From Campylobacterota bacterium (GTDB lineage: Bacteria; Campylobacterota; Campylobacteria; Campylobacterales; Sulfurimonadaceae), in NCBI GenBank assembly GCA_034717975.1, contig JAYEMF010000015.1, positions 25,786 to 57,035 of the forward strand: DNA of 31,250 nt. Reading direction: 5' to 3'. The notes under the pieces were generated by a model. It saw only the letters and a program-made list of their open reading frames with translations. It was not told the DNA's origin and ran no database searches. Positions 1-22,186 of the stretch are shown here, in pieces (position 1 is the stretch's first letter; each line of letters begins with the position of its first letter). Made by a program: the position numbers and the translations under genes.

Positions 1-21
1 TCCTTCTATTCCTACGATCAT
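1..21 (-). CDS. ruvA: Partial ORF MIVGIEG running off the window: either the true start of Holliday-junction protein RuvA or another repeat copy
   Basis: M(I/V)VG(I/L)EG..KK resembles Campylobacterota RuvA N-termini, and ruvA follows fapA in the Campylobacter ruvA-fapA-murJ-cysS gene order. Only 7 codons are visible. Confidence 0.5.
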
Positions 22-107
22 AGAGATTCCATTTTATCTACTTTACTCAAGTCAAAGCGAGATCTACTCGCTTTTTTGTTGAGATATCCTTCTATTCCTA
101 CGATCAT
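18..107 (-). CDS. 29-aa mini-ORF, repeat copy 2 (identical to copy 1)
   Basis: Same translation, with ATGA overlaps at both ends. Confidence 0.5.
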   Translation of the reverse strand: MIVGIEGYLNKKASRSRFDLSKVDKMESL

Positions 108-193
108 AGAGATTCCATTTTATCTACTTTACTCAAGTCAAAGCGAGATCTACTCGCTTTTTTGTTGAGATATCCTTCTATTCCTACGATCAT
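104..193 (-). CDS. 29-aa mini-ORF, repeat copy 1 (RuvA-like N-terminus MIVGIEGYLNKK plus an insert-derived tail)
   Basis: Translates MIVGIEGYLNKKASRSRFDLSKVDKMESL*. Its ATG overlaps the fapA stop (ATGA, 193-190) and its TGA overlaps the next ATG (107-104). Expression unproven. Confidence 0.5.
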   Translation of the reverse strand: MIVGIEGYLNKKASRSRFDLSKVDKMESL

Positions 194-2106
194 TCTTGTA
201 CCGACACAATCGAAAATTCTCCACTCTCTTCATCTTCATAAAGAGCGAAAACCTCTTCATGCGTATTTTCCATAGGTACAATCATCACTTCAAGCTCCGG
301 TTCGATCAGTTTAAATACAATGGTATTGTGACCACGCCATCTGTCGTGGCAGACCACACGTGCATCAAAGATATTACTTTGAAAGGCATGATGCTTGACG
401 GTCAGCATCTTAAAATACTCATTTTTCTGTGTCAGCTCTTCATTGAGCTTAGTCATATGTGTCTGCATCTGCTGGAACTGCTTGTACTTTTTTACAAATG
501 ACGAAGGCATCTGTACACCGTTTTTCTTGTAATGGATCAAACGCTTTTTCAGGTCAATAAAGGCAGCTTCATTGCTTTCGATCAACTCGGTATATTTTTC
601 CACCTCTTTTTCCAGCTCGATAATATGCCTTTTTGCCTCTTTCACCTTCTCTTCATTTTCAGCCAGCTCTTCTTGATTTCCCATCATCATCACCGGATCG
701 ATAATAAAATTGTTCTCGGAACCTTTTAGCTGTTGTACCTCAATCTTCTCTGTCGCCGTTATTGTAACGTGCGATCCCAGGATCTCGATATGGACCTCTT
801 TGGCAAAGATCTTTCCGCCGATAGCCTGTGCCACTGTTACGACTTCACCTTCAACCGTACCATGTTCAAGTCGTGTTATATGCACATTTTTACCACGCGC
901 CATACCTTTGTGGATATTGATCTTCAGCTCATCAGCAACCACTTCAGCACTCTGGTGAACCTGCCCTTCAATCGTCGCTTTATTCGCGCGCAGCTTGGAG
1001 CTGGAACCGACATTGCCATCAATATTGATCTCATTGACTTCAACGTCCATTCCCATACCGATCGCATCTTTGAAGACATCAGCCTCTTTAACGTTAATGG
1101 CAACATCAGCATCGAGTCCACTCTCGATCGAACCCGTCGTCTTGAAACTGATCTCGGACACTTCCATTTCAGTGTTGATGTCGTAGCTGTTGCCCTCGAA
1201 AGTAACATAGCCGCTCTGTTTTGCCCGGTATTCGACTTTATCGTCTGCTTCTATCTTTTCGATCTTGTCACTGATGCTGAAATCCGGTGCATGTTCAACA
1301 ATCGGTTCAGCAGGCACCAGGTACTCGCCACGGCAGTTTCGCCCGGCTTCACCAAGTTTGGGCTTGACATACTCAATCAACAGCTCATTTTCAACGGTAC
1401 TGACGAGATAGCCCCGCTTGGAGTAATCGACACGGTCCTGAGTGTCTTTGCCGCTGCTCTGCTTCTTATCATAGTGCAAAATCAACGCGTCATTGATCGT
1501 CATTACCGGTTCAATCCCCTGAGCAATCAGAAGCATCTCTTTCTCATCAAATGTCATCGTCTTACTCACACGGGTCCGTGCTACAAGGCCCTCGACAACA
1601 GCTTTCATCGGCTCATCAAAAAGGCTGATCATAAGGTTTGCGCGCAGCTTCTTTTTATTGATCAGCTTGACAAGTGATGCTTCCATCCCTTCAAAATAGG
1701 TCACTTTTGATCCGGGTCTAATGGTCAGGTAAACTTTGGTAAGTGCAGCGTTGGCACCAACGGCGATATTGAAAGATGAAAAGGGATCAGGCTCTGTAAT
1801 AGTAAAAATTTCAATCTCATAGAGCTGTTTTATCTCAAAAACAGGGTTAAGCATCATATTTCCGTCACTGATCTGCGCAACTTCGTCACTTGATAGCTCT
1901 TCCCATTCGCTATCCTTGCCCTCTGCACCTACCCGCGTCTTGGTCTGTACATCAAGGATATTAAAATCAAGGGTAGCGACATCAACATCATTGCCGGCTG
2001 CGACACTCATCAGCTCTTTGGCAACGTTTTCTGTACGTACAACAACCGAACGGATAACTTTTGCTACTGCTTCTTCCGACTTTTTCTTCTTGCCAAAAAG
2101 TGCCAT
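190..2106 (-). CDS. Flagellar assembly protein A family (DUF342/FapA)
   Basis: About 638 aa with RVDYSKRGY, KPKLGEAGRNCRGE and ISFKTTGSI motifs, a beta-helix-like region and a coiled coil; divergent from murJ as in Campylobacter. ATG at 2106 has AAGGG upstream (the track starts at GTG 2109). Confidence 0.85.
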   Translation of the reverse strand: MALFGKKKKSEEAVAKVIRSVVVRTENVAKELMSVAAGNDVDVATLDFNILDVQTKTRVGAEGKDSEWEELSSDEVAQISDGNMMLNPVFEIKQLYEIEIFTITEPDPFSSFNIAVGANAALTKVYLTIRPGSKVTYFEGMEASLVKLINKKKLRANLMISLFDEPMKAVVEGLVARTRVSKTMTFDEKEMLLIAQGIEPVMTINDALILHYDKKQSSGKDTQDRVDYSKRGYLVSTVENELLIEYVKPKLGEAGRNCRGEYLVPAEPIVEHAPDFSISDKIEKIEADDKVEYRAKQSGYVTFEGNSYDINTEMEVSEISFKTTGSIESGLDADVAINVKEADVFKDAIGMGMDVEVNEINIDGNVGSSSKLRANKATIEGQVHQSAEVVADELKINIHKGMARGKNVHITRLEHGTVEGEVVTVAQAIGGKIFAKEVHIEILGSHVTITATEKIEVQQLKGSENNFIIDPVMMMGNQEELAENEEKVKEAKRHIIELEKEVEKYTELIESNEAAFIDLKKRLIHYKKNGVQMPSSFVKKYKQFQQMQTHMTKLNEELTQKNEYFKMLTVKHHAFQSNIFDARVVCHDRWRGHNTIVFKLIEPELEVMIVPMENTHEEVFALYEDEESGEFSIVSVQE

Positions 2107-2219
2107 CACTGCCCTTACTGAGTATTGTGATGCTTATTTTAATCACTTATTTGTTAAAATTTTGTAAAGACCCCCTCTAAAATCACGATTCAGGCCATAA
2201 ACAGGAGTGATCAGACAGT

Positions 2220-3626
2220 ATGATCCGAGCGATCTTCACCAACAGTTTTGGCACGCTTTTCTCCCGTATTCTCGGTTTTATCCGCGACCTGATGACCGCT
2301 TCGGTCCTGGGTGCAAACATCTACAGCGATATCTTTTTTATCGCCTTCAAACTGCCTAATCTTTTTAGAAGGATATTTGCCGAAGGCGCTTTTACTCAGG
2401 CCTTTTTGCCCGCTTTTACCCATGCACGCCACAAGGCCGTCTTTTCCATCCATATCTTTGCCGTTTTTCTCTCCTTTATTGCCTTGCTGACCCTGGCCGT
2501 CAACCTTTTTCCGGAACTCGCAGCCAAAGCGATTGCATTGGGATTTGACGCCTCCACCGTTGAGATGGCAGCCCCATTTGTGGCTATCAATTTTTATTAC
2601 CTTCCCCTTATTTTTGCCGTCACCTTTTTAAGCACTTTTCTGCAGTACAGAAACCATTTTGCCACAACGGCATTTGGCACCGGGCTGCTCAACCTTTCAC
2701 TCATCGGCGCACTCTATCTCTCCCAGCAGATGGATCAACTCACGATCGTCTCCTACCTGAGTTACGGTGTTGTCATCGGCGGATTATTGCAACTCCTTTT
2801 CCACCTGATCGCCGTCTACAGAGTCGGCCTCTCACCACTGCTTGTCGGCGGGGTCCGCTATTTTCGAAAAAAAGCAGAGCGGGTCAAGGAAGAGAGCCAT
2901 GACTTCCGCCGCCAGTTTTTTCCGGCAGTCTGGGGAAACTCAACGGCGCAGGTTTCAGCTTTTTTGGACACCTGGCTTGCCAGTTTTCTCTCCGCCGGTG
3001 CCATCAGTTATCTCTATTATGCCAACCGCGTTTTTCAGCTCCCGTTAGCCCTCTTTGCGATCGCCACTTCGGTTGCCCTCTTTCCTACCATTGCCAGACA
3101 CCTCAAACATAATGATCATGACAAAGCGATCAACTACCTGCGCAAAGCTTTCTGGTTCCTGGCTTTCATTCTCCTGGGCAGTGCACTGGGTGGCTATATC
3201 CTGGCAGAAGAGATCACCTGGCTCCTCTTTGAACGCGGAGCATTCAGCCATGACGATACGCTAAACACCACTGCAGTACTGAAGATGTACATGATCGGCC
3301 TCCTCCCTTTTGGTCTGAGCAAACTCTTTGCCCTATGGCTTTATGCGCAAAAACGGCAGATGGAAGCCGCCAAAATCGCCACCTATACCCTTGGCAGCAA
3401 TATCATCTTCTCACTGGCCCTGATCATGCCGCTGGGAGCAGCCGGTTTGGCACTTGCAAGTACCATCAGCGGATTTATCGGCTTTTTTCTTACACTCAAA
3501 GCATTTGGACGTTCCCGCTTTTTGGCTATACTTTCGCCTAAATTTTCGCTCTACTGGCTGGTAAGCGCTGCACTGCTCAGTGCCATATTACTGCTGATTA
3601 AGGAACTCCTGCATGGTTATCTATGA
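2220..3626 (+). CDS. murJ: Lipid II flippase MurJ (MviN)
   Basis: SRILGFIRD, AFKLPNLFRRIFAEGAF and LYYANRVFQLPLALF motifs; polytopic membrane protein; AGGAG RBS. Confidence 0.97.
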   Translation: MIRAIFTNSFGTLFSRILGFIRDLMTASVLGANIYSDIFFIAFKLPNLFRRIFAEGAFTQAFLPAFTHARHKAVFSIHIFAVFLSFIALLTLAVNLFPELAAKAIALGFDASTVEMAAPFVAINFYYLPLIFAVTFLSTFLQYRNHFATTAFGTGLLNLSLIGALYLSQQMDQLTIVSYLSYGVVIGGLLQLLFHLIAVYRVGLSPLLVGGVRYFRKKAERVKEESHDFRRQFFPAVWGNSTAQVSAFLDTWLASFLSAGAISYLYYANRVFQLPLALFAIATSVALFPTIARHLKHNDHDKAINYLRKAFWFLAFILLGSALGGYILAEEITWLLFERGAFSHDDTLNTTAVLKMYMIGLLPFGLSKLFALWLYAQKRQMEAAKIATYTLGSNIIFSLALIMPLGAAGLALASTISGFIGFFLTLKAFGRSRFLAILSPKFSLYWLVSAALLSAILLLIKELLHGYL

Positions 3627-5013
3627 TTCTGTCGCCAAAACAAAACGTCACTTTGAACCGATCTCTCCTGAACGGGTGACACTTTATGTCTGCGGACCGA
3701 CTGTTTATGATGACGCCCATCTTGGCCATGCCAAAAGTGCCCTGGTCTTTGATCTTCTGCGCCGCGTTCTCAGTGTGAATGGCTACAACGTCACTTATGC
3801 CCGTAACATCACCGACATCGATGACAAGATCATCAAAAAAGCCGCCGAGTCAGGTGTTGATATTGCTACTATTACCAATACCTACACCGAAGCGTATCAT
3901 CGTGATATGAGTGCCCTTGGCGTCGAACGTCCCGATCTTGAGCCAAAAGCGACTGAATCACTGGACGCTATGTACGATCTCATCCAAAACCTGATCAATA
4001 ACGGCCACGCCTACCGGACAAGCAGCGGAGATGTCTACTTTGACACCCAAAGCGACAGCAGCTATCTCTCTATCTCCCATCGTCAGCAGGATGAAGATGA
4101 TCGTCAAAGCCGTGTTGAAAGCTCAAGCGAAAAACGTCATCCGGCTGACTTCGCACTCTGGAAAGCCGTACATGATGACTCCATCAGCTTTGACTCACCT
4201 TTCAGCAAGGGCCGTCCCGGCTGGCACACCGAGTGTTCGGCAATGATAGAGAAACATCTCGCTTCCGATAAAGCCTATGCCATCGATATTCACGGCGGCG
4301 GCGCCGACCTCCTCTTCCCCCACCATGAGAATGAAGCTGCCCAGACCCGCTGTGCCGGCAATCATGAACTGGCCAAATACTGGATGCATAACGGCTTTGT
4401 CAATATAGACGGCGAAAAGATGAGCAAGAGCCTCGGCAACAGCTTCTTCATAAAAGATGCGCTCAAGGCCTATGACGGTGAAGTGTTGCGTTTCTATCTG
4501 CTTGGTACCCACTACCGCGCCAACTTCAACTTCAATGAAGAGGATCTCATTGCCTCCAAAAAACGCCTCGATAAGCTCTACCGCCTGAAAAAGCGTCTTT
4601 TCGGCCTGAAAACGACAGCAGAGAAAACCGAATTTCAAGCCAAGCTTATCGCTGCACTCAGCGATGATATGAATGTCTCAGTAGCTTATGCCCTGATCGA
4701 TGAGATGGTAAGCGATGCCAATGAAAAGCTCGATGCCAACCCGAAAGACAAAGTGCTTAAACGTCAGACCATGGCCAATCTGGCATTAGTGGAAAAGGTA
4801 ATGGGCTTTGGTGTACAAAACCCGTTTAGCTACTTCCAGTTTGGTATTGATGAAACGACAAAAGTGAAAATCGATGAGCTGATAATCAAACGAACCGAAG
4901 CTAAGAAGGCAAAAGATTTTGCATCTTCCGATGCGATCCGCGATGAGATCACAGCACTTGGTATCACCCTCATGGACACGTCTGAAGGAACGTTTTGGGA
5001 GCGGTCAAACTAA
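3613..5013 (+). CDS. cysS: Cysteine--tRNA ligase
   Basis: YVCGPTVYD, HLGH, DFALWK, GRPGWHTEC, DIHGGGADLLFPHHENE and KMSKS motifs. Confidence 0.99.
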   Translation: MVIYDSVAKTKRHFEPISPERVTLYVCGPTVYDDAHLGHAKSALVFDLLRRVLSVNGYNVTYARNITDIDDKIIKKAAESGVDIATITNTYTEAYHRDMSALGVERPDLEPKATESLDAMYDLIQNLINNGHAYRTSSGDVYFDTQSDSSYLSISHRQQDEDDRQSRVESSSEKRHPADFALWKAVHDDSISFDSPFSKGRPGWHTECSAMIEKHLASDKAYAIDIHGGGADLLFPHHENEAAQTRCAGNHELAKYWMHNGFVNIDGEKMSKSLGNSFFIKDALKAYDGEVLRFYLLGTHYRANFNFNEEDLIASKKRLDKLYRLKKRLFGLKTTAEKTEFQAKLIAALSDDMNVSVAYALIDEMVSDANEKLDANPKDKVLKRQTMANLALVEKVMGFGVQNPFSYFQFGIDETTKVKIDELIIKRTEAKKAKDFASSDAIRDEITALGITLMDTSEGTFWERSN

Positions 5014-5170
5014 CCGCTGCTTAACATTTTCCAGTTATAGTAGAACACTTTGTATGCTATTGCCAAAATCTTCCAAATAGTTAAACAAACTGTTCAGTTA
5101 TTGACGATTTCGTGCTGAATCAACATTTTAATCAAGACCATTTTAAACGTTATCCTTCAAGGTATATAAA

Positions 5171-5199
5171 TTGACAAAAGGCACACATAGTGCTACAAT
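5171..5199 (+). promoter_or_regulatory. sigma70 promoter of the TA operon with an embedded palindromic operator candidate
   Basis: TTGACA (5171-5176), a 17-bp spacer, then extended -10 TGcTACAAT (5191-5199). GCAC-N5-GTGC (5181-5193) lies between the boxes. Confidence 0.8.
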
Positions 5200-5205
5200 T
5201 TACCC

Positions 5206-5484
5206 ATGATTACATATAATTGGAATACAGAAAAGAATCTTTTATTAAAAAAAGAACGTGGCATTAGTTTTGAACAGATAGTTTCACATATTGAAAGTGG
5301 TGACTTACTTGACATCATTGCTCATCCAAATAAAGAAAACTATTTGCATCAGCAAATTTTAATCGTTCAAATAGAAGACTACGTAATAGCCGTGCCGTTT
5401 GTTGAAGATGGCAAAGAAAGATTTTTAAAAACAATTATTCCAAGTCGTAAACTTACAAAACAATATTTAAAGGATTCAAAATGA
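5206..5484 (+). CDS. BrnT-like type II toxin (ribonuclease)
   Basis: WNTEKNLLLKKERGISFE...FLKTIIPSRK pattern; 92 aa, basic; toxin-first order with an ATGA overlap to the next gene. Confidence 0.85.
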   Translation: MITYNWNTEKNLLLKKERGISFEQIVSHIESGDLLDIIAHPNKENYLHQQILIVQIEDYVIAVPFVEDGKERFLKTIIPSRKLTKQYLKDSK

Positions 5485-5765
5485 AAGAATTTAAGTTAGA
5501 TCAAGAAGAAGCTGAGCTTTTAGATTCTGTTGAAGCTGGAGAATGGGTTTCAGTTGACAATCTTAAAGAAGAGATTTCTTCACATCAACAAATTGCAAAA
5601 AACACTTTAAAAAAAGACAAACGTGTCAATTTACGTATGTCATCAAAAGACCTTGAAGCAATTAAAACTTTTGCTGTTGAAGAAGGGCTGCCTTATCAAA
5701 CTCTAATGTCTAGTATTTTACATAAATTTATTACTGGCCGCTTAGTTGACAAACAGGCTGGATAA
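5481..5765 (+). CDS. BrnA/CopG-like antitoxin with a C-terminal ribbon-helix-helix
   Basis: Acidic N-terminus; KDKRVNLRMS...EEGLPYQTLMSSILHKF RHH-like motif. Confidence 0.85.
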   Translation: MKEFKLDQEEAELLDSVEAGEWVSVDNLKEEISSHQQIAKNTLKKDKRVNLRMSSKDLEAIKTFAVEEGLPYQTLMSSILHKFITGRLVDKQAG

Positions 5766-5878
5766 CAAAGCGTCAAAGCGAAATAGTTTACCCTGCGGGC
5801 AAAATAAAAATCGCATAACCTTTTGTTCATACAATTTTCAGTATAATCTCTGAAAAATTAAGCAGGACATTACCCTAA

Positions 5879-6934
5879 ATGATCGCCTACGACTCCATCA
5901 AACCATTTTTTTTCAGACTCGAGCCTGAAAATGCACATCACCTTGTCGAATATTTTCTCCGTGCAGCCAATATCTGCCCCGTAGTTTTCAACGGATGGAC
6001 AGAAAAACACTTTATTACCGATCCGCTCTTAAAGCAGGAGCTGTTCGGTCGTACCTTCCTCAACCCTGTCGGACTCGCTGCCGGTTTTGACAAAAATGCC
6101 ACGATGATCCGCGGGATGCAGGCCTTGGGTTTTGGCTATACCGAGATCGGTACACTTACGCCTAGACCGCAACCGGGCAATCCGAAACCGCGTCTCTTCC
6201 GTCACATCGAAGAGGAGACCCTGCAAAATGCGATGGGTTTCAATAATGAGGGGCTCTACAAAGCGCAGAAACGTCTTCAGGAGCTCTACCCTTTCAGTAC
6301 CCCTATCGGTGTAAACATCGGTAAGAACAAAGTCACCCCTGAAGCTGAAGCCATCAACGACTATATCACTCTGATCAAAGCACTTCACGAGCTGGGGGAT
6401 TATCTAGTGATCAATATCTCCTCTCCAAATACTCCGGGTCTTCGTGACCTTCAGAATGAAGCCTTCATCACACAACTTTTCCAGGAAGCCAAAGCCCTGA
6501 CCGATAAGCCGGTCCTGCTTAAGATCGCTCCTGACATGGAAGCCAGTGAAGCGGTTGATCTCACATCACATGCCGTTGCACAAGGTGCTGACGGGATCAT
6601 CGCCACCAACACTACCATTGACTATTCACTTGTCGCTCAGCCACAGGCCATCGGCGGTCTCAGCGGTGCCGTTCTAAAAGATAAAAGTTTTGAGATCTTC
6701 GATGCCGTTGCCAAAGAACTCTTTGGCAAGACAATCCTTATCTCTGCGGGTGGTATTGACTCAGCTGAAGAGGCCTACCGTCGTATTAAAGCCGGTGCCT
6801 CACTTGTACAGATATATTCGGCACTTATTTTCAAAGGCCCTGAGCTCATCAAAGATGTCAATCTCGGTCTGATCGATCTGTTGAAAGCTGACGGCTTTGC
6901 AAACATCAGCGAAGCCATTGGAGCCGATCGCTGA
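5879..6934 (+). CDS. pyrD: Quinone-dependent dihydroorotate dehydrogenase
   Basis: NPVGLAAGFDKN, NISSPNTPGLR, LLKIAPD and GGLSG motifs; TATAAT at 5842-5847 and AGGA RBS upstream. Confidence 0.98.
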   Translation: MIAYDSIKPFFFRLEPENAHHLVEYFLRAANICPVVFNGWTEKHFITDPLLKQELFGRTFLNPVGLAAGFDKNATMIRGMQALGFGYTEIGTLTPRPQPGNPKPRLFRHIEEETLQNAMGFNNEGLYKAQKRLQELYPFSTPIGVNIGKNKVTPEAEAINDYITLIKALHELGDYLVINISSPNTPGLRDLQNEAFITQLFQEAKALTDKPVLLKIAPDMEASEAVDLTSHAVAQGADGIIATNTTIDYSLVAQPQAIGGLSGAVLKDKSFEIFDAVAKELFGKTILISAGGIDSAEEAYRRIKAGASLVQIYSALIFKGPELIKDVNLGLIDLLKADGFANISEAIGADR

Positions 6935-8241
6935 TGCGGATTTTCACATTTATACTTTTTACACTTCTGACAATAGGAACGCTTATGGCATCATCCCTGC
7001 CAAACTATAAAACAAAAACCCTTGACAATGGACTTCAGATCGTTGTCATCCCGATGGAAAACGACACCAATGTCATCTCGACAGATATCTTCTACAAAGT
7101 CGGAAGCCGCAACGAGATCATGGGAAAAACCGGTATTGCCCATATGCTTGAACATATGAACTTCAAGTCAACCAAAAACCTCAATGCCGGACAATTTGAC
7201 GAAGAGGTTAAAAGTGTCGGCGGCGTAAGCAACGCTTCAACCGGGTTTGACTACACCCACTACTTTATCAAATCAAGCAGCGACAACCTCGACAAATCGC
7301 TCTCCCTCTTTGCCGAACTGATGCAGAACCTTAACCTCAAAGATGAGGAGTTCCAACCCGAACGTGATGTTGTCGCGGAAGAGCGCCGCTGGAGAACCGA
7401 CAACAATCCACTGGGCTATATGTACTTTCGCATGTTTAACAACGCCTACCTCTACCACCCCTACCACTGGACGCCGATCGGTTTCATGAACGATATCCTT
7501 ACCTGGACGATCGATGATATCCGCAACTTCCACGCGACCTACTATCAGCCAAAAAATGCGATCATGATCATTACGGGTGATATCGATGCCGACACTGCAT
7601 TCAAACATGTAGAACAGCACTTTTCCGCTATCAAGAACCGTGCAGAGATCCCTGAGTTCAAGTTTATCGAGCCGGAGCAGGATGGTCCAAAACGCATCAC
7701 GATCCATAAAGAGAGTGAGGTGGAGATGGTGGCGATCACTTTCCACATCCCTGACTTCACACATGAAGATCAGCCTAGACTCTCTGCGATCTCCGAGATT
7801 CTGAGTTCAGGCAAAAGCAGCCGTCTTTATGAGCAGCTTGTCGATAAGAAGCGTCTGGTAAACCAGATCTATGCCTACAACATGGAGAACAACGATCCCG
7901 GACTCTTTATCTTTCTGGCTGCCTGTAACCCCGGTGTCAAAGCCGAAGATGTAGAAAAAGAGCTTATCAGCGAGATCGAGCGTATCAAAAACGAAAAAGT
8001 TTCCCAAAGCGAGCTGGAGAAAGTGAAGATCAATACCAAATCGGACTTTATCTTCTCGCTGGAGAGCGCAAGCTCTGTCGCAGGACTTTTTGGAGGCTAT
8101 CTGGCACGAGGTGATCTCAAGCCGCTGGAGATGTATGAAGAGCATATCAATGCGCTCACTACCGACGATATCCAAGATGCGGCGAAAAAGTACTTCAACT
8201 TTAACAAATCCACAACAACAATTTTACGAAAGGGCAAATAG
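6934..8241 (+). CDS. M16 family (pitrilysin-like) zinc peptidase, probably exported
   Basis: Inverted zincin motif HMLEH (HxxEH), NASTGFDYTHY, hydrophobic N-terminal signal. Confidence 0.95.
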   Translation: MRIFTFILFTLLTIGTLMASSLPNYKTKTLDNGLQIVVIPMENDTNVISTDIFYKVGSRNEIMGKTGIAHMLEHMNFKSTKNLNAGQFDEEVKSVGGVSNASTGFDYTHYFIKSSSDNLDKSLSLFAELMQNLNLKDEEFQPERDVVAEERRWRTDNNPLGYMYFRMFNNAYLYHPYHWTPIGFMNDILTWTIDDIRNFHATYYQPKNAIMIITGDIDADTAFKHVEQHFSAIKNRAEIPEFKFIEPEQDGPKRITIHKESEVEMVAITFHIPDFTHEDQPRLSAISEILSSGKSSRLYEQLVDKKRLVNQIYAYNMENNDPGLFIFLAACNPGVKAEDVEKELISEIERIKNEKVSQSELEKVKINTKSDFIFSLESASSVAGLFGGYLARGDLKPLEMYEEHINALTTDDIQDAAKKYFNFNKSTTTILRKGK

Positions 8242-9132
8242 ATGGAAAACCTTATCGGTGCTATGACAGCACTTATTACACCAATCAAAAACAACAAGTT
8301 AGACAGTGAGGGATACGCCAAACTTGTCCAGCGTCAGATTGAAAATGGCATTACAACTGTCGTTCCGGTAGGCACAACCGGAGAGAGCGCGACACTGAGC
8401 CACAGTGAACATAAAGAGTGTATTGCCATTGCCGTGGACGTCTGTAAAGGAACGAACTCCACCGTACTCGCCGGTGCCGGCAGTAACGCCACATCCGAAG
8501 CGATCGATCTGGCCAAGTTTGCACAGCATGAGGGGGCGGATGCACTTTTATGTGTCACGCCGTACTATAACAAACCATCGCAAGAGGGACTCTATCAGCA
8601 CTACAAAGCCATTGCATCTTCATCTGACCTTCCGTTAATGCTTTACAACGTACCGGGGCGTACAGCTGTTGATCTTCAATGCGCTACTGTAAAGCGTCTG
8701 TTTGATGAGTGTGACACTGTCTATGCAATCAAAGAGGCGACCGGCTCCATCGAGCGTACTGTTGAACTCCTGGCCAAGATTCCAGAGATCAAAGTGATCA
8801 GTGGTGATGACGCTATCAACTACCCGATTATGGCTTCCGGCGGTCATGGAACCATCTCTGTCATTGCCAATCTCCTGCCAAACAAGATCAGCAAGCTGGT
8901 AAAAGCGGCACAAAGCGGTGACCTGATAGAAGCCAAACGTCTCAATGACAAACTTTATGACATCAACTCGGTCATGTTCATCGAGTCCAACCCGATCCCT
9001 ATCAAGGCGGCCATGTATATTGCCGGACTAATCGATACCCTCGAATACCGTTTGCCTCTTGTACCGCCAAGTGCCGAAAATATGAAGCATATCGAAGCGG
9101 TCATGAAACACTACGATATACCTAACCTATAA
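8242..9132 (+). CDS. dapA: 4-hydroxy-tetrahydrodipicolinate synthase
   Basis: GTTGES, TPYYNKP, LYNVPGRT, IKEATG and NPIPIK motifs. Confidence 0.98.
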   Translation: MENLIGAMTALITPIKNNKLDSEGYAKLVQRQIENGITTVVPVGTTGESATLSHSEHKECIAIAVDVCKGTNSTVLAGAGSNATSEAIDLAKFAQHEGADALLCVTPYYNKPSQEGLYQHYKAIASSSDLPLMLYNVPGRTAVDLQCATVKRLFDECDTVYAIKEATGSIERTVELLAKIPEIKVISGDDAINYPIMASGGHGTISVIANLLPNKISKLVKAAQSGDLIEAKRLNDKLYDINSVMFIESNPIPIKAAMYIAGLIDTLEYRLPLVPPSAENMKHIEAVMKHYDIPNL

Positions 9133-9145
9133 GGAGAATACGACA

Positions 9146-9913
9146 ATGAAAGATAAAGTACTGTTTATCAGTGGAGGAACACGTGGGATCGGTAAAGCGA
9201 TCGTTTACTCATTCGCTGAAAAAGGGTGTGATGTAGCATTTACTTATGCATCTAGTGCAGATACGGCCAATGAGATTATTGCTGATGTTGAAAAACAGTT
9301 TGGCGTTAAATGTAGAGCTTACAAACTAAACATCTTAGAGCCGTTAACTTACAAAGATGTCTTTAAAGAGTTTGATGAAGATTTCGACCGTATCGACTAC
9401 TTTATCTCCAATGCGATCATCTCCGGTCGGGCTGTTGTCGGAGGTTTCGGTCCGTTTATGCGCCTGAAACCAAGAGGCCTTGACAATATCTGGACTGCAA
9501 CCGTAGATGCTTTTGTTGTCGGTTCGCAGGAAGCGGCCAAACGTATGGAAAAGACAGGCGGCGGATCGATCATCTCGATGAGCTCTACCGGTAATCTGGT
9601 CTATACTCCAAATTACGCCGGTCACGGTTCCAATAAAGCTGCCGTTGAAGCAATGGTCCGCTATGCAGCAGCGGAACTGGGTGATAAAAATATCCGTGTC
9701 AACGCTGTCAGCGGCGGTCCGATCGATACCGATGCCCTTAAAGCGTTCCCTAACTATGAAGAGGTGAAAGCAGAGGTTGTTAAACGTTCTCCGCTCAACC
9801 GTATGGGTGATGCTACAGACCTTACGGGGGCCTGTCTCTTCCTATGCAGCGGAGCAGCATCATGGCTGACCGGTCAGACCATCGTTATTGATGGCGGGAC
9901 ATCATTTCAATAA
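9146..9913 (+). CDS. SDR oxidoreductase, FabL-like enoyl-ACP reductase (often annotated 7-alpha-hydroxysteroid dehydrogenase)
   Basis: SGGTRGIG, YAGHGSNKAA and VSGGPIDTDAL motifs; follows dapA as in Campylobacter/Helicobacter. Confidence 0.88.
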   Translation: MKDKVLFISGGTRGIGKAIVYSFAEKGCDVAFTYASSADTANEIIADVEKQFGVKCRAYKLNILEPLTYKDVFKEFDEDFDRIDYFISNAIISGRAVVGGFGPFMRLKPRGLDNIWTATVDAFVVGSQEAAKRMEKTGGGSIISMSSTGNLVYTPNYAGHGSNKAAVEAMVRYAAAELGDKNIRVNAVSGGPIDTDALKAFPNYEEVKAEVVKRSPLNRMGDATDLTGACLFLCSGAASWLTGQTIVIDGGTSFQ

Positions 9914-10014
9914 TGGGTACGGCAAATGGGCAAAGCCCATTTACCTGCGTTAACACTGGGTTTGCTTTAGCAGCAGGCTCACGCGCAGTTAAACCGTGCT
10001 CTTTACCCATAATT
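9909..10014. repeat. Short palindromic MITE-like insertion
   Basis: Ends AATAATGGGTA (9909-9919) / TACCCATAATT (10004-10014), 10 of 11 complementary. Internal perfect hairpin AAATGGGC-AAA-GCCCATTT (9924-9942). Confidence 0.6.
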
Positions 10015-10080
10015 AGCCACTTGTCATTCATCACGAATAAACACTTGCTATTCACTCAGAAAGGTAATGTTCTTGCTTAA
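9913..10080 (+). CDS. 55-aa bridging ORF between enoyl-ACP reductase and pgsA
   Basis: MGTANGQSPFTCVNTGFALAAGSRAVKPCSLPIISHLSFITNKHLLFTQKGNVLA*. Starts in a TAATG overlap with the upstream stop and ends 14 nt into pgsA. Below the ORF-track length cutoff; expression unproven. Confidence 0.4.
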   Translation: MGTANGQSPFTCVNTGFALAAGSRAVKPCSLPIISHLSFITNKHLLFTQKGNVLA

Positions 10081-10621
10081 CTTACCTAACCTGCTGGCTT
10101 CACTGCGTATCCTGATGGCACCGGTGATGTTCTGGATTATTCTCAATCCACAGCTTTTTACTGATAACGGTATGCATATTTCGTGGAACTACTATGTTGC
10201 ATCCCTGCTCTTTGTCCTGGCCAGCATAACAGACTTTTTTGACGGCTTTATTGCGCGTCAGCTTGATCAGATGACAATGTTGGGAGCGATTCTTGATCCA
10301 CTGGCGGATAAGATGCTTGTTCTCGCTGCATTTTTAGGTTTGATGATGGTTGGTGAGGCTTCGGCATGGGCGATCTATATCATCATTGTGCGTGAGCTCT
10401 TCATCACCGGTCTTCGTACCGTGGCAGTCAGCGAAGGGATAAGTGTTGCAGCATCCTGGGCAGGTAAAGTTAAAACCGTCGCCCAGATGTTTGCCATCGG
10501 ATTTCTACTGATGCACTGGCCTTACGGTGATGCACTTCTCTGGTTTGCCGTCGCACTAACCGTCTACTCCGGTCTGGAATATCTCTGGGGCTTTGGTAAA
10601 GCCATTAAGGAAAAAAATTGA
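10067..10621 (+). CDS. pgsA: CDP-diacylglycerol--glycerol-3-phosphate 3-phosphatidyltransferase
   Basis: NLPNLL..LR, TDFFDGFIAR...LGAILDPLADK CDP-alcohol phosphotransferase motif, GKVKT. Confidence 0.96.
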   Translation: MFLLNLPNLLASLRILMAPVMFWIILNPQLFTDNGMHISWNYYVASLLFVLASITDFFDGFIARQLDQMTMLGAILDPLADKMLVLAAFLGLMMVGEASAWAIYIIIVRELFITGLRTVAVSEGISVAASWAGKVKTVAQMFAIGFLLMHWPYGDALLWFAVALTVYSGLEYLWGFGKAIKEKN

Positions 10622-10782
10622 GCTGGTTGTGCACTTCTTTTGACAGGTCCAAGGGAGTAAATCCCTTGAACTACGATAACTCTACGTTTGCCTCGGCGGC
10701 AAGCCCACGCACCCTTGGCGCTTTGTATCCTCTTTACACTTCACCTTTTACACTTTACTCTTTCCGAAAGAAAATATTATGA
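10618..10782 (+). CDS. 54-aa bridging ORF between pgsA and rseP, starting with a duplicate of the RseP N-terminus (MSWL)
   Basis: TTG start overlaps the pgsA stop (TTGA) and the TGA overlaps the rseP ATG (ATGA). Translates MSWLCTSFDRSKGVNPLNYDNSTFASAASPRTLGALYPLYTSPFTLYSFRKKIL*. Expression unproven. Confidence 0.45.
   Translation: MSWLCTSFDRSKGVNPLNYDNSTFASAASPRTLGALYPLYTSPFTLYSFRKKIL
10733..10765 (+). repeat. Degenerate heptamer tandem repeat
   Basis: TTTACAC TTCACCT TTTACAC TTTACTC TTTCC. Confidence 0.6.
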
Positions 10783-11831
10783 GCTGGTTAATCTCCCTCG
10801 CGGTCCTCTCCGCACTCATCTTCTTTCATGAGCTGGGTCACTATATGGCAGCCCGTCTCATGGGAGTCTATGTCGAAGTATTCAGTGTCGGTTTCGGCAA
10901 ACGTATTTATGGTTTTCGATGGCTTGACACCGACTGGCGTATTGCTGCCATTCCACTGGGCGGCTATGTGAAGATGAAGGGTCAGGATGACCTTGATCCG
11001 ACGTCAAACAGCATCGACAGTGACAGCTACAATGCCAAGACGCCCGCACAGCGTATCTTCATTCTTCTTGCCGGTCCGGCAGCAAATTTTCTTCTCGCCT
11101 TTTTTCTTTACCTGTTCATCGGGATGGGTGGTCCGCAGACTCTTTCACCGATTATTGGAAAAGTAGTCGAAGACTCCCCTGCAGCGGTAGCCGGACTGCA
11201 GACTAACGACAAGATCATCTCCATCAATGGCACCGAGATCACAACCTGGAAAGCAATGTCCAACACTATCAAAACTTCCCAAGGTGATCTCACGCTGGTA
11301 ATTGAGCGTAGCACTATGCTTGAACATATCATCCTGTCGCCTCGTATCACAGAGACGACCAATATCTTTGGTGAAACTGTACAGCGACGAATGGTCGGCA
11401 TCGGATCAGCCGGTATCTACCATGAGCTGGAGATGGGCTTTTTCGGATCGATCGGCTACGCAGCAGAAGAGACCTGGCAGGCATCAACCCTGATCTTTCT
11501 GAGTCTGCAAAAACTCCTGAGTGGAGCAGTACCGGCCAAAGAGCTCGGCGGTGTCGTAAGCATTGTTCAGATCACTGCACAGGCGAGTGAAGCGGGCTGG
11601 ATGAGTGTCCTCTTCTTTGCCGCACTGATCTCGGTAAATCTCGGTGTTTTGAACCTCCTGCCTATCCCTGCTCTCGATGGCGGCCATATCATGTTCAACC
11701 TTTACGAGATGATTACCCGCCACGCACCAAGTGAAGCTGTGCTTATGCGTCTGACCATAGCAGGATGGGCTATTTTACTAGGCTTGATGAGTCTCGGACT
11801 CTATAACGACTTTAACCGACTTATAGGATAA
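10779..11831 (+). CDS. rseP: RIP metalloprotease RseP
   Basis: HELGH, PLGGYVKM, AGPAAN, a PDZ domain and NLLPIPALDGGH. Confidence 0.97.
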   Translation: MSWLISLAVLSALIFFHELGHYMAARLMGVYVEVFSVGFGKRIYGFRWLDTDWRIAAIPLGGYVKMKGQDDLDPTSNSIDSDSYNAKTPAQRIFILLAGPAANFLLAFFLYLFIGMGGPQTLSPIIGKVVEDSPAAVAGLQTNDKIISINGTEITTWKAMSNTIKTSQGDLTLVIERSTMLEHIILSPRITETTNIFGETVQRRMVGIGSAGIYHELEMGFFGSIGYAAEETWQASTLIFLSLQKLLSGAVPAKELGGVVSIVQITAQASEAGWMSVLFFAALISVNLGVLNLLPIPALDGGHIMFNLYEMITRHAPSEAVLMRLTIAGWAILLGLMSLGLYNDFNRLIG

Positions 11832-21848: not shown

Positions 21849-22186
21849 TTATGGGCACCTCTAAAAACCCTGTATATCATCAGAGGGCAAAGAAGGTGTA
21901 AGATTTTGTTCTAAGGTTTCGTAGGACTACCAGTAGGTAAATGTGCGAAGCCTGCCCTTGGGTGCAAGAAACTTTAGGACGGAAGCTTGCGCCTTATTTG
22001 CCCTCCCAAAGGGCGTTACATACATTAAGCAACTTTACTCGATGAAAATATGCCACTGGCATATTTCTCATTCGAGATATCGTTAGAACCTTGCAACCGT
22101 AACCAGTTACGCTAGCAAGAACCTGCCTTGATCACAAAGTCGTATGCAACGCTGATGATACACAGGGTTTTTAGAGGTGCCCATAA
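21849..22186. mobile_element. Non-coding MITE-like palindromic element, about 338 bp
   Basis: 35-bp terminal inverted repeats TTATGGGCACCTCTAAAAACCCTGT(A/G)TATCATCAG with 1 mismatch; several internal stems; no transposase ORF. Confidence 0.85.

Follow-up and report, generated by a model that had tools for sequence, protein, structure and literature searches.

Small structured repeats have inserted at tight stop/start junctions of operons in a Campylobacterota bacterium (Sulfurimonadaceae), with duplication of the target sequence. The stretch analysed here, in the following called the window, comprises 31,250 nucleotides (contig C15, positions 25786-57035) of a draft genome of 2.52 Mb in 149 contigs with 45% G+C. 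According to the list of open reading frames (ORFs), it contains three such junctions between co-directional genes, namely fapA/ruvA (J1), enoyl-acyl carrier protein (ACP) reductase/pgsA (J2) and pgsA/rseP (J3), and at each of them a micro-ORF that begins at the upstream stop codon runs through the insert to the start region of the downstream gene. Across the genome such bridging frames occur in excess, specifically among frames that begin at the junction and in spacers that bear repeats, and at J1 the relay of micro-ORFs persists in several species. Judged from sequence, it is moderately probable that this pattern results from a survival filter, that is, that bridged repeat insertions at coupled junctions are preferentially retained. 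Below, G000 denotes the source genome and C numbers its contigs, whereas G001 and G002 are relatives of the same genus and L numbers designate loci of relatives.

Two repeat families at three operon junctions

At J3, pgsA (10067-10621, plus strand; a CDP-alcohol phosphatidyltransferase gene, CDP-OH_P_transf in Pfam) is followed by rseP (10779-11831, plus strand), which encodes an M50 site-2 protease with a PDZ domain (Peptidase_M50). Direct repeats of 10 nt, i.e. the target duplication TGAGCTGGTT on the plus strand at 10619-10628 and its downstream copy at 10780-10789, enclose 151 nt of inserted DNA (10629-10779). This element has imperfect terminal inverted repeats with an outer helix of 8 bp, and its last A creates the present rseP ATG. 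The micro-ORF of 54 codons (10618-10782, plus strand) starts with the TTG of a TTGA at the pgsA stop codon and ends in the ATGA of the rseP start. At J2, a short-chain dehydrogenase/reductase (SDR) gene of the enoyl-ACP reductase type (9146-9913, plus strand; identified from the ORF list and Pfam) ends in a TAA at 9911-9913, and a micro-ORF of 55 codons (9913-10080, plus strand) begins with the ATG of the TAATG formed at this stop; its own stop codon lies 11 nt inside pgsA. J1 is located on the minus strand at the very beginning of the window. Here, the TGA (192-190) of a fapA-like gene (190-2109, minus strand; FapA_N, 1.1e-16) overlaps the ATG (193-191) of the first of two micro-ORFs, which reside in a tandem array detected by the program TRF (1-193, minus strand; 86-nt unit, 2.2 copies, 100% identical) and bounded by a scaffold gap of 100 N. 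Micro-ORF 1 (104-193) comprises 29 codons and has ATGA overlaps at both ends, and its identical copy, micro-ORF 2 (18-107), ends in the ATGA of the next copy of the ruvA start (21-1).

An earlier reading of this DNA by a model that saw only the letters and the ORF list (the sequence-only reading) had described these open frames, and all of them (29 plus 29, 55 and 54 codons) are indeed present in the ORF list. The exact ATGA ends that it reported are present at J1 and J3, the stop at J2 being the one inside pgsA, and its names for the flanking genes are backed at the Pfam level (FapA_N, SDR, CDP-OH_P_transf, Peptidase_M50 plus PDZ), ruvA excepted. Its rough estimate of a chance of about 0.075 for each long insert to remain open agrees with dinucleotide shuffles, which yield bridging probabilities of 0.065 for J2 and 0.08 for J3.

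The three inserts had also been considered mutually unrelated, which proved incorrect. BLAST and iterated nhmmer searches revealed 75 matches in the genome to a core of ~80 nt, and these include J2 and J3 in the same orientation (family 1), whereas the J1 insert belongs to a second family. The core extends from 9918 to 9999 at J2 (plus strand; nhmmer, covariance model, alignment and covariation) and from 10644 to 10723 at J3. Alignment of 22 copies shows that it consists of three hairpins: 86% of the cells are paired as compared to 31-43% in slid controls, a level that none of 500 shuffles reached, and compensatory changes on both sides are seen in 13 of 19 pairs. Where bounded by repeats, the family-1 inserts measure 145-154 nt. 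[quoted passage not shown] Terminal inverted repeats are clear at C104:6915-7040 and C68:7082-7225; most copies merely show a T-rich conserved 5' extension and lack clear terminal inverted repeats. A covariance model detected family 1 in 26 of 41 related genomes, among them 21 of the 24 from the same family and four genomes from other families of the order, at 1-47 copies per genome as compared to 75 in G000.

Family 2 is a REP-like hairpin of ~55 nt, in which conserved flanks surround a variable but stable stem-loop. Pattern match and folding place its two J1 copies on the minus strand at 124-174, where the order is GATATCTC, hairpin (-10.7 kcal/mol) and GAGTAAAGTAG, and at 38-88. The genome contains at least 54 pattern matches, of which, by eye, at least roughly 30 lie between genes and form hairpins of -7 to -17 kcal/mol. 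As RNA, the three inserts fold better than their shuffles (z-scores of -1.7, -2.8 and -2.6). Terminator-like sites were found in none of them on the gene strand, and the J1 hairpin is terminator-like only on the opposite strand. Rfam returned no match at gathering score in the window (best E-value in 9880-10800: 1.3), and the literature searched (Sulfurimonas with MITEs; MITE with translational coupling and operon) yielded no description of these repeat families.

Several copies are found in other settings. The family-2 copy at 22030-22081 of the window is embedded in a longer sequence, which is found again, flanks included, on C11, C90 and C109, and a tandem array at C39:12468-12904, broken by an N gap, is composed of units of ~150-230 nt that each carry a family-2 hairpin. 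At C111:7156 and C27:31714, the AT-rich end of an antisense family-1 copy provides unrelated downstream genes with near-identical strings consisting of a Shine-Dalgarno (SD) sequence, an ATG and the first codons. Family-1 elements may donate start sites.

Target duplications, empty sites and insertion context

Among the 565 co-directional spacers of 50-300 nt in G000, direct repeats of at least 10 nt at the junction were observed five times as compared to 0.7 expected, namely at J3 (10 nt), C104:6904 (13 nt), C104:7358 (11 nt), C138:60328 (14 nt) and C48:15992 (14 nt or more, in reality ~48 nt). All five cover or abut the stop/start junction. Long repeats also flank a copy on C67 (29684-29727; 50 nt) and one in the related genome G024 (L149; ~32 nt). 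Two further candidates were left out of the count, i.e. an 11-nt repeat at C111:33909 that is a tRNA arm and a 10-nt repeat at C111:7822 that lies inside the upstream gene. Most of the 67 family-1 copies show no duplication above chance, and we suspect that a duplication remains recognisable only if coding constraint acts on both of its copies.

Two of these sites have features of their own. The insert at C48:15992-16140 belongs to family 2 and is flanked by the ~48-nt duplication of the start region of the downstream gene; a frame of 42 codons that opens at the first GTG is closed by a TAA shortly past the second GTG. A half-type relative of family 1, in which hairpin 1 is followed by a different module, occurs at C138:60328-60439 and C67:29684-29727, and the C138 site combines its 14-nt junction duplication with a bridge of 36 codons.

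The sequence-only reading had proposed to look for empty sites in close relatives, and such tight or overlapping junctions were found at J3 and at other sites. In 21 related loci that carry both genes, the pgsA/rseP junction is devoid of such an insert and the longest spacer is 44 nt; in two of them (L003 and L018) the empty site is a TTGA overlap with TTG as the rseP start. Hence, the J3 micro-ORF takes its start codon, together with the native AAGGA in front of it, from ancestral rseP. Empty sites in the same genus comprise ATGA overlaps at C111:7797 and C130:24751, a TAATG overlap at C104:7358, a 6-nt spacer at C86:10710 and a 21-nt spacer at the murC junction, and in other genera fapA and ruvA meet in ATGA or TAGATG junctions without insert. 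As to the claim that the start of the downstream gene is repeated after each insert, it stands for J3 (10 nt) and for J2, where TAATG is present at both ends; at J1 the repeated stretch is ~22 nt long and not ~36 nt. The "regenerated" 5' end of the gene is an ordinary duplication of the target around the insert.

It had further been suggested that the repeats target operon start codons by a special mechanism. The genomic context does not bear this out: family-1 copies are distributed over co-directional, divergent and convergent gene pairs (51, 11 and 7) as expected from the counts of such pairs (52.1, 8.4 and 8.5), and within co-directional spacers both orientations occur (21 sense, 30 antisense; p=0.26). 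A related explanation holds that these are dedicated elements of the type of the mycobacterial MIRUs, evolved to insert at start codons and equipped with a built-in ORF, ribosome-binding site and start. It could draw on the fact that every clear target duplication covers or abuts a start codon, on the long duplications of 5' ends (~22 nt at J1, ~48 nt on C48, 50 nt on C67 and ~32 nt at L149) and on the SD-plus-ATG strings at C111:7156 and C27:31714. However, besides the unbiased contexts and orientations, only 8 of 40 co-directional copies bridge, the J2 and J3 bridges use different frames of the same core, and the position of the duplications may be an ascertainment effect if they are visible only under coding constraint on both copies. 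We regard dedicated elements as quite unlikely.

Bridging frames and the proposed retention of insertions

The evidence for the survival filter comes from counts of bridging frames. A strict bridge was defined beforehand as a frame whose start codon overlaps the upstream stop and whose own stop lies within -3 to +18 of the downstream start. Genome-wide, 14 strict bridges were counted as compared to 4.4±1.9 in 200 dinucleotide shuffles (maximum 9), and in spacers of 100-300 nt there were 8 instead of the 1.14 expected from shuffles. The other frames of the same inserts served as an internal control, which is reusable in any genome. In the 40 co-directional family-1 spacers of G000, frames that start at the junction bridge in 8 of 15 cases as compared to 5 of 105 for the other frames when the end window is widened to -15 to +18 (p=7.4e-6), and in 6 of 15 as compared to 2 of 105 cases with the pre-set window (p=3e-5). 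The difference is also seen with ATG starts only (5/7 vs 8/113) and with exact ATGA-type ends only (5/15 vs 1/104), and a pooled check of the window definition gave 12/30 vs 13/339 (p=2e-8). Exact ATGA overlaps terminate five of the eight G000 bridges. Extending the comparison to 119 spacers that bear repeats of any family again revealed the excess (13/38 vs 23/319, p=1.2e-5), whereas 304 spacers of at least 97 nt without element (3/76 vs 26/836, p=0.73) and 402 unique spacers (9/92 vs 76/1114, p=0.29) showed no enrichment. Thus, the genome-wide comparison with shuffled spacers and other frames that the sequence-only reading had called for does reveal an excess, and it resides in repeat-bearing spacers and not in unique ones. 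The result was replicated in 140 loci around model matches in related genomes, which include 83 co-directional spacers (6/15 vs 17/234, p=9e-4; strict window, p=1.4e-4).

Eight G000 junctions have an ancestor that was overlapping or abutting, as shown or inferred, and seven of them are bridged (J1, J2, J3, C111:7797, C130, C104:6904 and murC), with C104:7358 as the unbridged one; this set was chosen through the junction start and is hence biased. Orthology is obscured at C29:47806 by ~60 paralogues of the upstream protein per genome, at C142 by the lack of a match to the upstream protein in five genomes, and at C104:6904 by the absence of the downstream gene from the two loci. Three non-bridged junction-start cases in G000 correspond to spacers of 32, 9 and 192 nt in relatives, i.e. 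they were not ancestrally overlapping, and two of the three keep a clear SD sequence of their own. At C104:7358, which had a TAATG overlap ancestrally, TGGAG precedes the ATG. SD pairing, calculated with an anti-SD string that we take to be the appropriate one, is weaker at the bridged junctions of G000 (median of -2.8 vs -5.05 kcal/mol, one-sided p=0.013).

It is conceivable, albeit somewhat unlikely, that the bridges are a neutral by-product. According to this explanation, the repeats are selfish or structural DNA, the duplication copies a start codon mechanically, few stop codons occur in the G+C-richer cores, and the resulting bridges are unselected and have no effect on expression. Indeed, the consensus core is open in two of three sense frames and in one of three antisense frames, the shuffle probabilities of the individual sites are 0.04-0.25 and hence not tiny, the J2 orthologues are unbridged (see below), seven of nine insertions at tight junctions in relatives lack a bridge, and the repeats have neither orientation nor context bias. 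However, other frames of the same inserts bridge in just 5 of 105 (G000) and 17 of 234 (relatives) cases, as opposed to 8/15 and 6/15 when the frame starts at the junction. The exact ATGA ends of five out of eight G000 bridges likewise argue against neutrality, as does the fact that the J1 relay has persisted in three species, each with an architecture of its own.

At J1, position 1 of the window directly follows the 100 N, and all that the window holds of ruvA is the repeated string encoding MIVGIEG. RuvA_N was found nowhere in the assembly, which is 99.9% complete by marker genes, but is present in 14 of 14 relatives searched, so that the body of ruvA must lie in the gap. The name that the sequence-only reading had given to the gene downstream of J1 is accordingly one deduced from MIVGIEG and from synteny in relatives, and the "real" ruvA start that it placed after the insert is hidden by the gap. 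By comparison with the real ruvA starts of relatives, the duplicated stretch is ~22 nt long, and each 86-nt unit is composed of these ~22 nt and a family-2 hairpin repeat. The location next to the gap, the perfect identity of the copies and the absence of ruvA from the assembly could all suggest an assembly artefact at a contig end, yet we hold this to be extremely improbable. A unitig of 107 nt representing the unit has a depth of 100 vs 36 in the flank in one run and of 130 vs 59 in another (2.2-2.8x), the 39-nt joint between units reaches 75 and 110 in the same two runs, which puts unit and joint together at 1.9-2.8x flank depth, and both genomes of the same genus carry homologous units at the same junction. 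All four sequencing runs belong to one study, two of them may represent the source sample, and the independent support that they provide is confined to the J1 depth. The unitig depth shows that the array is real and contains 2-3 units.

The repeats seem to break the assembly: several copies are found at contig ends, half a copy of the family-1 repeat lies across the scaffold gap at C15:25646-25686 (-139 to -99 relative to the window), and the ruvA gene was lost in the gap beside one. One contig of run X3 ceases to match the window immediately ahead of position 226, where 50 of its letters are unlike, pointing to a strain whose fapA end or junction is different. In three runs, contigs connect 5343 with 5421 and thereby omit 77 nt, with only 21 letters on the shorter side; this skip (5343-5421) sits inside or between two small genes (5206-5484 and 5481-5765) and may stem from variation between strains or from a different organism.

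The J1 relay is kept in all three species of the genus, in three different architectures. G000 carries the identical 29-codon units, whereas G002 has a single ORF of 29 codons with ATGA at both ends, its DNA being ~70% identical to the G000 unit without indels (counted by eye), and G001 has two degenerate units whose ORFs of 23 and 20 codons are chained into a GTGA start. For comparison, FapA itself is only ~58% identical over the last 200 residues. At the murC junction, element and bridge are present in both G000 and the related genome G019. In another relative (L216; G020:C179), the murC junction contains a 58-nt spacer without detectable family-1 element, in which a frame of 20 codons opens with a GTG located at the upstream stop and closes in the ATGA of murC.

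J2 tells a different story. Homologous elements directly after the reductase stop are found in six other genera, which lie within one clade of a rough neighbour-joining tree, whereas the site is a TAATG overlap in four genera of the other clade and a 16-nt spacer in the two genomes of the same genus. We read this as an old insertion with later loss, bearing in mind that the tree has no support values.

A number of points weigh against the survival filter. The bridging frame is present in none of the six orthologous J2 elements (0/6), so that pgsA is expressed without a bridge in those genera; that is, the relatives' versions of this insert are interrupted, which the sequence-only reading had itself named as an outcome that would refute its proposal. 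Moreover, two relatives read TAATTTG where G000 has the J2 ATG, and this ATG may have arisen by chance. Junction-start frames fail to bridge in 7 of 15 cases in G000 and in 9 of 15 in relatives, and three of the eight G000 bridges start with TTG. When G000 was used as the empty-site reference for insertions in the 83 spacers of relatives, which is a less biased comparison, bridges were found in 2 of 9 cases where G000 is tight (at most 3 nt) and in 1 of 31 where it is not; this is the predicted direction, with p=0.12. The difference in SD pairing at bridged junctions is not seen in relatives (p=0.43). As to methods, genes were called with a crude hexamer-based caller of our own (2581 genes, 91% coding), the wider end window was chosen after seeing the data, although the pre-set window still yields p=3e-5, and the loci from related genomes are not fully independent, the murC junction of G019 being orthologous to the G000 site.

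Taken together, we favour the survival filter in a softened form. The sequence-only reading had suggested, as one of two alternatives, that only insertions which relay ribosomes survive; that they survive better is backed by the statistics, the replication and the conservation of J1, whereas bridging is not obligatory, as J2 demonstrates with its 0/6. In the model that we propose, a repeat copy would land where a stop and a start codon of an operon overlap or lie close together, and the target would be duplicated around it, as seen at the sites described above. The upstream gene would keep its stop, the downstream gene would keep or regain its start, and the upstream copy of the start codon, still located behind the native ribosome-binding site, would open a frame into the insert. 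Copies whose frame remains open up to a stop at or near the downstream start are over-represented, as shown by the frame counts and the conservation of J1. The micro-ORFs would be translated from the duplicated native start, and termination at or near the downstream start would let ribosomes reinitiate. Coupling and protection from polarity would thereby be preserved, and such insertions would be tolerated and preferentially kept. A downstream gene that keeps or gains an SD site of its own would need no bridge, which may explain why bridging is common but not universal.

The peptides are probably throw-away products. That they are functional small proteins might be argued from the J1 peptide, which can be aligned between G000 and G002 and has 29 residues in both, but the idea is highly improbable: none of the three micro-ORF peptides has a match in Pfam, those of J2 and J3 are read from homologous DNA in different frames, in G001 the J1 frame is divided between two peptides that are shorter and different, and the J2 orthologues contain stop codons. 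In any case, annotation can easily mistake such micro-ORFs for hypothetical genes.

If the relay works, it would explain how selfish repeats colonise essential coupled operons, here for lipid synthesis, an envelope protease and recombination, without polar damage, and it would show how repeat DNA can give rise to short translated ORFs de novo. A broader proposition, which we put forward as a speculation that is unlikely to hold, combines two ideas: a general filter, by which any small repeat on a coupled junction persists mainly if ribosomes are relayed, and an insertion process at translation start regions, distinct from that of classical transposases, which would account for the 5'-end duplications of ~22-50 nt at family-2 and half-type copies. 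If the general filter were true, bridging micro-ORFs in repeat spacers could be used as a read-out, from sequence only, of gene pairs that depend on coupling.

Comparison with known repeat systems

The small, non-coding, multi-copy MITEs (Correia/NEMIS, ERIC, RUP and Chunjie), as portrayed in the relevant parts of PMC10969869 and PMC3184786, fold into stem-loops like the repeats studied here, and in both groups some copies have terminal inverted repeats, which are imperfect, and target duplications. According to the same passages, they also lie next to or overlap gene ends and are co-located in operons, and some of them create ORF fusions (PMC10969869, PMC3184786). The present repeats differ in that a motif-pair search revealed no autonomous parent, i.e. 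no insertion sequence (IS) or transposase-sized unit with matching ends, in that the internal three-hairpin core rather than the ends is conserved across genera and families, and in that the length of the duplication varies (10, 11, 13 and 14 nt at four sites).

Repetitive extragenic palindromes (REPs) and the bacterial interspersed mosaic elements (BIMEs) built from them, which are associated with Y1 transposases of the REP-associated tyrosine transposase (RAYT) type, are likewise structured extragenic palindromes with compensatory variation. The genome contains six Y1_Tnp matches of the IS200/IS605 or RAYT type (on C57, C146, C113, C46 (two) and C120), four of them in ORFs of 219-348 amino acids. 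In addition, the complementary strand of family 1 has a GTAG before hairpin 1, and a GTAG motif is a hallmark of REPs. However, the hit lists place no family-1 or family-2 element beside any of the six Y1_Tnp genes. To our knowledge, no target duplication is expected when RAYTs mobilise REPs.

Short upstream ORFs which supply ribosomes by termination-reinitiation, as treated in part of a 2025 review of translational coupling (PMC12548453), are similar with respect to their overlaps of -4 or -1 nt and their throw-away peptide. The present ORF differs in its origin, as it arose from a repeat that was inserted between two genes coupled beforehand.

Among known systems, the mycobacterial MIRU comes closest, and by analogy the repeats described here would work like MIRUs. 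The sequence-only reading knew of no named system with this architecture, for which MIRUs are a precedent, going by the sections of two sources that deal with them (PMC12548453, PMC3184786). In these sections, MIRUs appear to insert at start codons and to contain an internal ORF coupled at -4 nt, for which the review cites Supply 1997 (PMC12548453). They are further described, in a review of 2011, as units of 40-100 bp that are transcribed within a polycistronic RNA, carry ORFs and overlap the adjacent genes with their ends, with empty sites in M. leprae (PMC3184786). There are also clear differences. The two systems belong to different phyla and are likened by architecture, a relation in sequence being unlikely in view of the distance between the phyla and the difference in base composition. 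The repeats studied here are hairpin-rich, REP/MITE-like and present in all intergenic contexts and in both orientations, and their ORF is not built in, as only a subset of copies bridges (8/40) and J2 and J3 use different frames. Their duplications comprise 10-14 nt, and more at sites of the J1 type, as compared to the tetranucleotide repeats reported for MIRUs in the part of PMC3184786 concerned. Nevertheless, as far as these accounts go, the parallels are extensive: both consist of short repeats that occupy intercistronic spacers within operons and have empty counterparts in relatives, and in both an ORF spans the unit and overlaps the flanking stop and start with its ends (-4 nt, ATGA). 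Tandem units that chain their ORFs also occur in both, here at J1 with 2.2 assembled units in G000, one in G002 and two degenerate ones in G001, and the role proposed for either is that translational coupling is kept with minimal harm. Thus, the design known from MIRUs would extend to Campylobacterota and to generic REP/MITE-like repeats.

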